From the sequence record PQ374146.1: 38,771 nucleotides of DNA. One strand, 5' to 3'. The position numbers and the translations under genes are program-made. Position 1 is the stretch's first letter. Each line of letters starts with the position of its first letter. The stretch comes from Acinetobacter phage TPWB-05. A model generated the notes under the pieces. That model had not been told where the DNA came from, did no database searches, and worked only from the letters and a program-made list of their open reading frames with translations. Shown here piece by piece: positions 32,329 through 33,300 of this stretch.

Positions 32329-33015
32329 ATGTCTGTAGGTGATCGAATCCGTTCTTTACGTAGAGAAAAGAAATGGTCTCAACCTGTCCTCGCAAAACAG
32401 GCTGGTGTGACTCAATCAACTATTTCAGATTTAGAAAATAATAAAAAAAGCACGTCTGCTGAGAATATGCAGGCTATTGCAAATGCGCTTGATACTGATA
32501 CAAATTACTTGATTAATGGGGTTGCTTCACCGAAATTGACAAAAGTAGAGGCATGGGATTACAACACTCCTTTAGAAGATGACGAAGTAGAAATTAAATT
32601 TTTTGAAGATTTTAAAGTTGCATGTGGTTCGGGTACGGTTGGAGAGGCTTTGGAAAGTGAATGGCGTAGATTAAGAGTTCCTAAATCTACATTGAGATAT
32701 CAGGGTATTAGTAAGGAAAACTGTGTTGCTATGATGGCACATGGCGACTCAATGAAACCCACAATAAAAGATAAAGATACAGTGTATGTCGATCTAGGTC
32801 GAAATACAGTGAAAGATGGTAAGGTTTTTGCAATTAGTCATGGAGGGTTATTTAAGTTTAAACGGTTATATAGCTTACCTTTCGGAGGTGTCAGGATTGT
32901 TAGTGATAACCATGAAGAATATCCAGAGGAACGTTTAACAGCAGAACAAATTAAAGCAGAAGAATTTGAAATTATTGGTTGGGCTTGGTCTTGGCAGACA
33001 ACAGATATTTGGTGA
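32329..33015 (+). CDS. cI: CI-type prophage repressor (XRE HTH plus S24 LexA-like peptidase domain).
   Basis: N-terminal HTH. C-terminal GDSM serine and a downstream lysine, as in S24 autoproteases. Confidence 0.9.
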   Translation: MSVGDRIRSLRREKKWSQPVLAKQAGVTQSTISDLENNKKSTSAENMQAIANALDTDTNYLINGVASPKLTKVEAWDYNTPLEDDEVEIKFFEDFKVACGSGTVGEALESEWRRLRVPKSTLRYQGISKENCVAMMAHGDSMKPTIKDKDTVYVDLGRNTVKDGKVFAISHGGLFKFKRLYSLPFGGVRIVSDNHEEYPEERLTAEQIKAEEFEIIGWAWSWQTTDIW

Positions 33016-33019
33016 TCTT

Positions 33020-33259
33020 ATGAAAATAGGAAAGAAATATTACTATGTGAGTAAAACTGAGTTTTTCGGCATCTATGGGTTTTTAGTTGTACTTCCTTTA
33101 GTTCTGCAGTACTTATATTTGCCAATAGATATGACTTTTTTTTCATTCATTAAATTGTCATTAACTAAACCGCTAAATTGGATATTTTTGATCGTAATTA
33201 CTTGGTTTGCTATAAAGAATTTTGTTCATGAATATGAGCCGACCAACACTATAAAGTAA
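33020..33259 (+). CDS. Small two-TM membrane protein (79 aa) co-transcribed with cI. Candidate superinfection-exclusion / abortive-infection factor.
   Basis: ATG at 33020 lies 5 nt after the cI stop, with a GGTGA SD. Two hydrophobic helices. Very AT-rich. A terminator follows. The ORF track extends it upstream to 32966, overlapping cI. Confidence 0.55.
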   Translation: MKIGKKYYYVSKTEFFGIYGFLVVLPLVLQYLYLPIDMTFFSFIKLSLTKPLNWIFLIVITWFAIKNFVHEYEPTNTIK

Positions 33260-33273
33260 TTCATTTGATCTTG

Positions 33274-33300
33274 TGCCCTGCTTGATGCAGGGTTTTTTAC
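33274..33300 (+). terminator. Rho-independent terminator of the cI / membrane protein operon.
   Basis: Stem CCCTGC/GCAGGG (33276-33281 and 33287-33292) followed by TTTTTT. Confidence 0.6.

Follow-up and report, generated by a model that had tools for sequence, protein, structure and literature searches.

Accessory genes transcribed together with a phage repressor usually act against other phages, as exemplified by rexAB of lambda, stk of 933W, hex of 434 and genes 43/44 of CarolAnn (PMC3564112, PMC6426606). Exclusion of superinfecting DNA at the cell membrane is known as well: P22 SieA, an inner-membrane protein expressed from the prophage, is alone sufficient to keep DNA from passing the inner membrane, as it blocks the conduit that the short-tailed P22 and related phages build from ejection proteins for DNA delivery (PMC10883804), and lactococcal Sie2009 and Ltp of Streptococcus phage TP-J34 are membrane or lipoprotein exclusion factors blocking DNA injection (PMC10883804, PMC3952083). 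Here we analysed the 38,771-nucleotide (nt) DNA of Acinetobacter phage TPWB-05 (record PQ374146.1; the whole stretch is called the window), in which orf79, the gene of a predicted two-helix inner-membrane protein of 79 amino acids (aa), follows directly behind a cI-type repressor gene (orf79: 33020–33259, + strand). We propose, at a probability of roughly 40%, that the orf79 protein serves superinfection exclusion in lysogens, stopping the DNA of other phages from entering at the inner membrane. The protein would thereby act like T4 Imm, P22 SieA, HK97 gp15 and lactococcal Sie2009, while being unrelated to T4 Imm or P22 SieA. An accessory gene on the repressor transcript is a textbook arrangement, and what is new is the protein family.

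Compared with the described systems, the locus follows the same logic as lambda rexA-rexB, namely that cI, accessory gene, terminator and the leftward operator and promoter (OL/PL) succeed one another on one strand, and RexB is a membrane protein too. Whereas lambda Rex consists of two components, the cytoplasmic sensor RexA and RexB with four transmembrane (TM) helices, and acts by depolarisation as an abortive infection (PMC6426606), orf79 stands alone and encodes a 79-aa protein having two TM helices, in which neither Pfam nor PADLOC detected any resemblance to RexA or RexB. The hex gene of phage 434 also lies directly 3′ of the repressor gene and is translated from the PRM transcript in lysogens (PMC3564112), but its open reading frame (ORF) specifies 158 aa and partly overlaps cI. 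Moreover, Hex acts on the RecA-mediated cleavage of the repressor and was purified in soluble form as a fusion protein. Nearest in size and hydropathy is T4 Imm (83 versus 79 aa), likewise with two hydrophobic segments and mostly membrane-embedded, which according to the T4 record annotation changes the membrane so that superinfecting DNA is left in the periplasm. However, Imm has no sequence relationship with orf79 (hhalign of profile A3 against T4 Imm, probability 0.07%; no Pfam match), and it is the product of an early gene of a virulent phage, whereas orf79 stands behind a repressor gene and would be expressed in lysogens. The Imm family is Pfam PF14373 (Imm_superinfect). The likeness to P22 SieA lies in the inner-membrane location, predicted for orf79, of a prophage-encoded protein and in the type of phage, the window phage being podovirus-like too and having an internal protein with an SLT domain. 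The sieA gene itself lies elsewhere in the P22 genome. SieA comprises 162–164 aa with three predicted TM helices (PMC10883804), against 79 aa and two helices in orf79, and no SieA-type homology appeared as a Pfam or function-assigned PHROG match, a direct alignment with SieA not being included. Sie2009 and Ltp are larger proteins of Gram-positive hosts and have no sequence relationship to orf79 (no PHROG match). Their genes lie in the lysogeny module beside the repressor gene.

The repressor gene of the window (32329–33015, + strand; 228 aa) was identified by its Pfam domains HTH_3 (E 7e-15) and Peptidase_S24 (E 4e-18) and its match to phrog_4, transcriptional repressor (E 4e-48). Its TGA stop codon (33013–33015), which is preceded by a Trp codon, is separated by only four bases (tctt) from the orf79 ATG at 33020, i.e. 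at stop+5, and the orf79 stop codon is 33257–33259. A Shine-Dalgarno sequence (SD), GGTGATC (33011–33017, + strand), overlaps the Trp and stop codons of cI and ends 2 nt before the ATG; it fits the 3′-terminal consensus of bacterial 16S rRNA. Because of the 4-nt stop-start gap, and given the SD lying over the stop codon, translational coupling of orf79 to cI is plausible. An intrinsic terminator (33275–33299, + strand; terminator scan) ends the predicted cI-orf79 transcript 15 nt past the end of orf79, comprising a 7-bp GC-rich stem with a 5-nt loop (GCCCTGC-TTGAT-GCAGGGT, 33275–33293; −13.1 kcal/mol) followed by T6. Thus, the 79-aa frame five nt after the cI stop, its SD and the clean terminator behind it, all described in the first-pass annotation of this DNA, were found in place. 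The same annotation had put orf79 in one operon with cI and predicted its constitutive production in lysogens, and the layout agrees: besides the 4-nt gap and the terminator after orf79, cI is separated from the terminator by a single ORF, and a consensus promoter scan found no promoter-like site on the + strand inside cI. We infer from this layout that cI and orf79 are co-transcribed on one mRNA and that orf79 would be produced constitutively in lysogens. The maintenance promoter for cI-orf79 was not located by the consensus scan, and no Rfam family was detected in 31600–33800.

The two genes are framed by operator-like sites. A 16-bp motif, TATC-N6-GCGATA, occurs in exactly four copies in the 38.8 kb, all at the rightward operator (OR) or OL, and with one mismatch allowed the pattern gave nine matches versus 1.5 expected, a number that no shuffle reached. 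The OR-like cluster (32245–32307) occupies the cI-cro intergenic region, with exact sites at 32245–32260 and 32292–32307 and a degenerate site at about 32268–32283. The OL/PL-like control region (33305–33371, + strand) follows the terminator and contains the operators TATCTTTATTGCGATA (33310–33325) and TATCGTTAATGCGATA (33354–33369), picked up as the repeat families D1 and D2; a promoter TTGACT-17-GATATT (33343–33371, + strand; promoter scan), driving the early-left operon, is overlapped by the downstream operator pair. On the other side of OR, a divergent cro-like helix-turn-helix (HTH) gene (32008–32214, − strand; 68 aa) matches phrog_6831, transcriptional regulator (E 2e-18). Consequently, the gene order reads cro, OR, cI-orf79-terminator, OL/PL and early-left genes, and orf79 sits between the OR and OL/PL operator clusters with a terminator behind it, which is the position of lambda rexAB. 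The earlier description of a canonical location for rexAB/sieB-type exclusion genes therefore stands for rexAB, and the comparison with sieB is less apt. In lambda and P22, sieB lies in the PL operon and not behind the repressor gene. The order of the window matches that of lambda cI-rexA-rexB-OL, as published (PMC6426606, PMC3564112) and by established knowledge.

AT-rich as had been remarked at first sight, orf79 has a GC content of 28.8%, compared with 37.6% for cI and 41.5% for the window. By codon position it is 0.29 at the first, 0.24 at the second and 0.34 at the third (GC3), the last lying inside the neighbours' range of 0.25–0.46; the low values at positions 1 and 2, but not at GC3, reflect a protein rich in Phe, Ile, Leu, Lys and Tyr. 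A foreign origin or recent import suggested by the low GC was rejected since GC3 is within the neighbours' range. The mechanical ORF list also contained a 97-aa reading from a TTG (32966–33259, + strand), and gene callers likewise extended the homologues P0001, P0004 and P0005 to 94–98 aa. This longer form was disfavoured because the ATG and the SD are conserved and the extension mirrors the conserved cI C-terminus in another frame, so that the upstream extension inside cI is probably not translated and the form of 76–84 aa is favoured.

About ten sequence clusters contain relatives of orf79, all unnamed and derived from Logan, ENA or JGI assemblies. An indexed search of 5.8 billion proteins retrieved one relative, and an exhaustive phmmer search of 1.84 billion cluster representatives yielded three matches; a profile search gave eight homologues (P0001–P0008) that are 47–66% identical to orf79, and a scan of JGI metagenomes added one further locus. 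When IMG/VR and the GTDB species-representative genomes were scanned for patterns from the orf79 alignment, no relative came up, nor did tblastn of orf79 match anything in GenBank phages. Throughout the homologues the start codon and the SD are conserved and the frame is unbroken; the four subfamily-A relatives inspected all retain GGTGAT, which lies 4–5 nt before the ATG in L001, L006 and L013 (L numbers denote related loci). A hairpin with a T-run stands directly 3′ of the homologue in four of the five relatives read (L001, L006, L013, L015), with differing stem sequences, and in the type-1 loci OL-like operators come after the hairpin. Nei-Gojobori ratios of nonsynonymous to synonymous substitution (dN/dS) among six members were 0.11–0.40, with dS at or near saturation. 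Being conserved in constant synteny and showing such ratios at saturated dS, orf79 is more than a chance ORF, and we regard it on these comparisons as a genuine gene under purifying selection.

The synteny was consistent in all loci. A same-strand repressor with HTH_3 and Peptidase_S24 lies directly upstream of the homologue in every contig long enough (L001, L006, L007–L012, L013–L014, L015, L036–L039, L043), and the short contigs L040–L042 agree as far as they reach, their repressor being partial or past the contig end. In L007 and L015 the repressor is of another type, alignable with the window cI only over the 64-residue HTH region (38–39%), and the orf79 homologues behind this type still have about 50% identity to orf79; the orf79 subfamilies co-segregate with the repressor types. 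In subfamily B, that of the second, unrelated immunity type, an extra protein of 64–76 aa is encoded between cI and the homologue (L007 5741–5971; L015 1289–1519; L040 32–262); its N-terminal TM helix is followed by a middle segment rich in Glu, Lys and Asn, coiled-coil-like by eye, and by two C-terminal Cys. No informative family match was obtained for it, and it could be a partner of the orf79 homologue.

The two hydrophobic helices noted in the first-pass annotation were recovered, with the nuance that the second is short. Kyte-Doolittle analysis placed TM1 at about residues 15–34 (peak 1.91) and TM2 at about 51–68 (peak 1.54), the hydrophobic core of the latter spanning only about 15 residues (52–65). 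The AlphaFold2 model, based on a 9-sequence alignment, reached a mean predicted local distance difference test (pLDDT) of 80.2 and contains helices 12–32, 40–49 and 51–68, an N-terminal β-hairpin (2–3, 6–10), a 7-residue loop after helix 12–32 and a strand 69–72, so predicting an integral inner-membrane hairpin with a short amphipathic connecting helix 40–49. All nine members carry three to four Lys/Arg within the first 14 residues and have a TM1-TM2 spacing of only 13–16 residues; because of the positive-inside rule and this short segment, both termini are probably cytoplasmic (N-in/C-in) with almost no periplasmic exposure. The residues M1, K2, I3, Y8, E14, G17, Y19, F21, L25, P26, K45, P51, N53, W62, K66, F68, H70 and Y72 are invariant, including one Pro per membrane helix and a C-terminal K-x-F-x-H-x-Y motif, and the basic N-terminus and the conserved C-terminal motif (K-x-F-V-H-E-Y in orf79) are predicted to form a small β-sheet with each other in the cytoplasm.

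That the protein has no known motif, as had been stated from the letters alone, held up in all searches. No Pfam family matched orf79 at E ≤ 1, and none relevant was found at E ≤ 10 across the nine members; PHROGs gave no match for orf79 and nothing informative for the homologues; the PADLOC-DB 2.0 defence models produced zero families at E ≤ 1, and a profile search of PDB sequences zero matches at E ≤ 10. Foldseek against BFVD and PDB found nothing below E 0.67. Judged by these searches, the orf79 family is new, unannotated and without sequence or fold relative. The phage lineage is similarly isolated: megablast of 31600–33700 found no match in GenBank phages, and the nearest repressors in deposited phages are those of Moraxella phages at 42% identity, so by sequence the lineage is without close relative among deposited phage genomes.

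Relatives of the window cI revealed that the place behind the repressor gene is a variable one. They were found in prophages of A. haemolyticus (82%), A. rathckeae and A. nectaris, in an Alkanindiges metagenome-assembled genome and in 19 IMG/VR contigs (47–83%), the closest Acinetobacter prophage repressors being 82–83% identical; this points to Acinetobacter or a near relative as the host. By reading the DNA from the cI stop to OL/PL in these loci, the slot was found to contain a family of 165–169 aa with two C-terminal TM helices (L002/L017, L021, L022), lipoproteins with an LAGC or FAGC lipobox (L004; L018–L020), which parallel Ltp, signal-peptide proteins (L005/L026; L024/L025) or a 119-aa protein with a hydrophobic N-terminus (L016), and to be empty in nine loci (L023; L027–L034). 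For instance, a 169-aa cargo protein is encoded in L002 (A. haemolyticus CIP 64.3, 6693–7202), and the repressors of L002 and L017 are 82% identical to the window cI. The alternative cargo proteins had no informative family match, and a weak holin match of the 169-aa protein (E 0.003) extends over no more than a TM helix. From these readings, the slot cargo is all envelope-directed and of unknown function, and the slot turns over quickly; it appears dispensable for repressor function since relatives carry other cargo or nothing. Newly recognised in this Acinetobacter prophage lineage is a hypervariable slot for envelope proteins behind cI.

Based on position and predicted anatomy, we propose the following course for the exclusion. 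The orf79 protein would be made from the cI mRNA, which stops at the terminator before OL/PL, and so would be present whenever repressor is made, i.e. in lysogens. In the inner membrane it may interfere with the conduit through which an incoming phage delivers its DNA, hindering either the insertion or the working of this conduit, whether by direct action or by tying up a host inner-membrane component on which the phage depends. The likeliest targets would be related podoviruses with T7-type ejection proteins. The window phage is itself of a temperate podovirus type, having a T7-type portal (23491–25134, − strand; PF12236, E 2e-102) and an integrase, and encodes a 949-aa internal virion protein (12412–15261, − strand) with an SLT transglycosylase and a ddrB-like ParB domain (E 1.5e-42); such large internal or ejection proteins, another candidate being encoded at 8720–11887, are likely to be the targets of any homotypic exclusion. 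A membrane-buried orf79 protein cannot serve to mask receptors in the outer membrane or capsule, and is poorly equipped for sensing of the Rex type. By anatomy, exclusion at the inner membrane is favoured over abortive infection of the Rex type because the protein is only 79 aa, nearly all membrane-embedded, without sensor domain or a partner gene in the window.

Several points weigh against the exclusion proposal. Inference from gene location is weak, as the genes found behind repressors include lysogeny stabilisers such as 434 Hex; no sequence or fold homology ties orf79 to a known exclusion or defence protein; the family is rare, its approximately ten sequence clusters coming exclusively from metagenome assemblies; and TM2 is short and the topology a prediction only. 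The first-pass annotation had offered orf79 as a candidate superinfection-exclusion or abortive-infection factor, a putative role that fits all findings, among them the invariable place behind repressors of two immunity types and the turnover of unrelated envelope proteins in the slot of related prophages.

As an alternative, orf79 may serve lysogenic conversion as a small membrane-protein regulator, comparable to AcrZ or MgrB, which we consider possible without being probable. By attaching to a transporter or sensor kinase of the host inner membrane, or to an enzyme of envelope biosynthesis, it would alter the physiology or the cell surface of the host. The small peptide Iap of phage D3, which inhibits O-antigen polymerisation, offers a parallel. 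The size and the nearly all membrane-embedded structure are typical of small membrane regulators, the slot cargo of the relatives consists of envelope proteins, and the prophage has a second candidate conversion gene, that of a PglD-like acetyltransferase (3555–4226, + strand). No particular host target is indicated, however, and the proposal overlaps with exclusion, as an effect on a surface or entry component would exclude phages too. The acetyltransferase is of the hexapeptide-repeat type (Hexapep, E 2e-12; PglD_N, E 9e-8), a candidate moron perhaps acetylating a surface glycan; its gene is alone on the + strand between the endolysin gene (2515–3102, − strand) and an ORF at 4210–6390 (− strand), near the integrase gene (930–2156). 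The ORF at 4210–6390 had no family match and is a tail-region gene by position.

Abortive infection by an orf79 oligomer, forming a membrane pore or depolarising channel that opens upon infection and kills the cell before phage release, like RexB and CarolAnn gp43, is rather unlikely. It shares the genomic position of rexAB and the predicted membrane location, the TM1-short helix-TM2 layout gave weak Foldseek matches to the TRPM3 pore region that are non-significant (E ≥ 2.5), and the extra 1-TM protein of subfamily B might act as partner. Yet in the known systems of the Rex type a 4-TM channel subunit depends on a cytoplasmic sensor (RexA or gp44, 280–370 aa) being present as well (PMC6426606), whereas orf79 has neither a sensor domain nor a partner gene in the window, and PADLOC matches were absent and the fold matches without significance.

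We regard it as unlikely that orf79 is an accessory of lysogeny control which stabilises the lysogen or tunes induction, e.g. via the membrane protease FtsH. The precedent is 434 Hex, encoded just 3′ of the repressor gene on the PRM transcript, whose loss raises spontaneous induction (PMC3564112), and the co-segregation of orf79 subfamilies with repressor types would agree with such a role. But repressors 82–83% identical to the window cI have entirely different cargo in the slot, and relatives at 47–56% repressor identity have an empty one, showing that orf79 is not needed by the repressor; moreover, the predicted embedding of orf79 in the membrane contrasts with Hex, which was handled in soluble form.

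A further variant, which we rate as very improbable, would make orf79 a minimal one-protein channel gated directly by the incoming ejection proteins, that is, a Rex-like abortive infection that dispenses with a separate sensor, and the slot a hotspot of envelope-level anti-phage effectors. The predicted TM1-short helix-TM2 layout superficially resembles the pore module of pore-loop cation channels. A lysis function as a class II holin, pinholin or antiholin with two TM helices is scarcely credible: with 79 aa and a predicted N-in/C-in topology, orf79 would be compatible with a class II holin, though such features are generic, but co-transcription with the repressor would be lethal, the endolysin gene lies about 30 kb away with small upstream ORFs of its own, and no holin family matched in Pfam or PHROGs, so the reading was dropped on its position outside the lysis cassette. 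Finally, that orf79 is a spurious ORF in a non-coding spacer between cI and the terminator, as its shortness, AT-richness and a family never annotated in reference databases could suggest, is effectively refuted by the dN/dS values, together with the 47–66% identity in an unbroken frame, the conserved start and SD and the pLDDT of 80.

Some neighbouring genes were characterised as well. Next after cro in the rightward operon, a 104-aa ribbon-helix-helix-like protein (31685–31999, − strand; phrog_19583, E 6e-46) has weak RHH_1 and NikA-like matches and by its position is a candidate cII-like regulator. The TTGACT-17-GATATT promoter faces a + strand operon starting at 33443, of which the first gene (33443–33649, + strand) encodes 68 aa with one C-terminal TM helix and matches phrog_29933, of unknown function (E 7e-10). 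In most related loci, the PL operon is opened by a similar small protein with a polar N-terminus and a hydrophobic C-terminus. The early-left operon further includes a PDDEXK-like DUF3799 gene at 35008–35859, where relatives have RecT or YqaJ genes.

Acinetobacter is a leading target of phage therapy, and exclusion by prophages can make therapeutic phages fail unannounced. For this temperate podovirus-like prophage group, no exclusion protein appears to have been characterised, and orf79 provides a small, easily cloned candidate. In the slot between cI and OL, at least six unrelated families of envelope proteins are swapped, which makes it a compact collection of candidates for exclusion or conversion. 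Should orf79 indeed block DNA entry, escape mutants should reveal the phage and host components for crossing the Acinetobacter inner membrane, which are poorly known.

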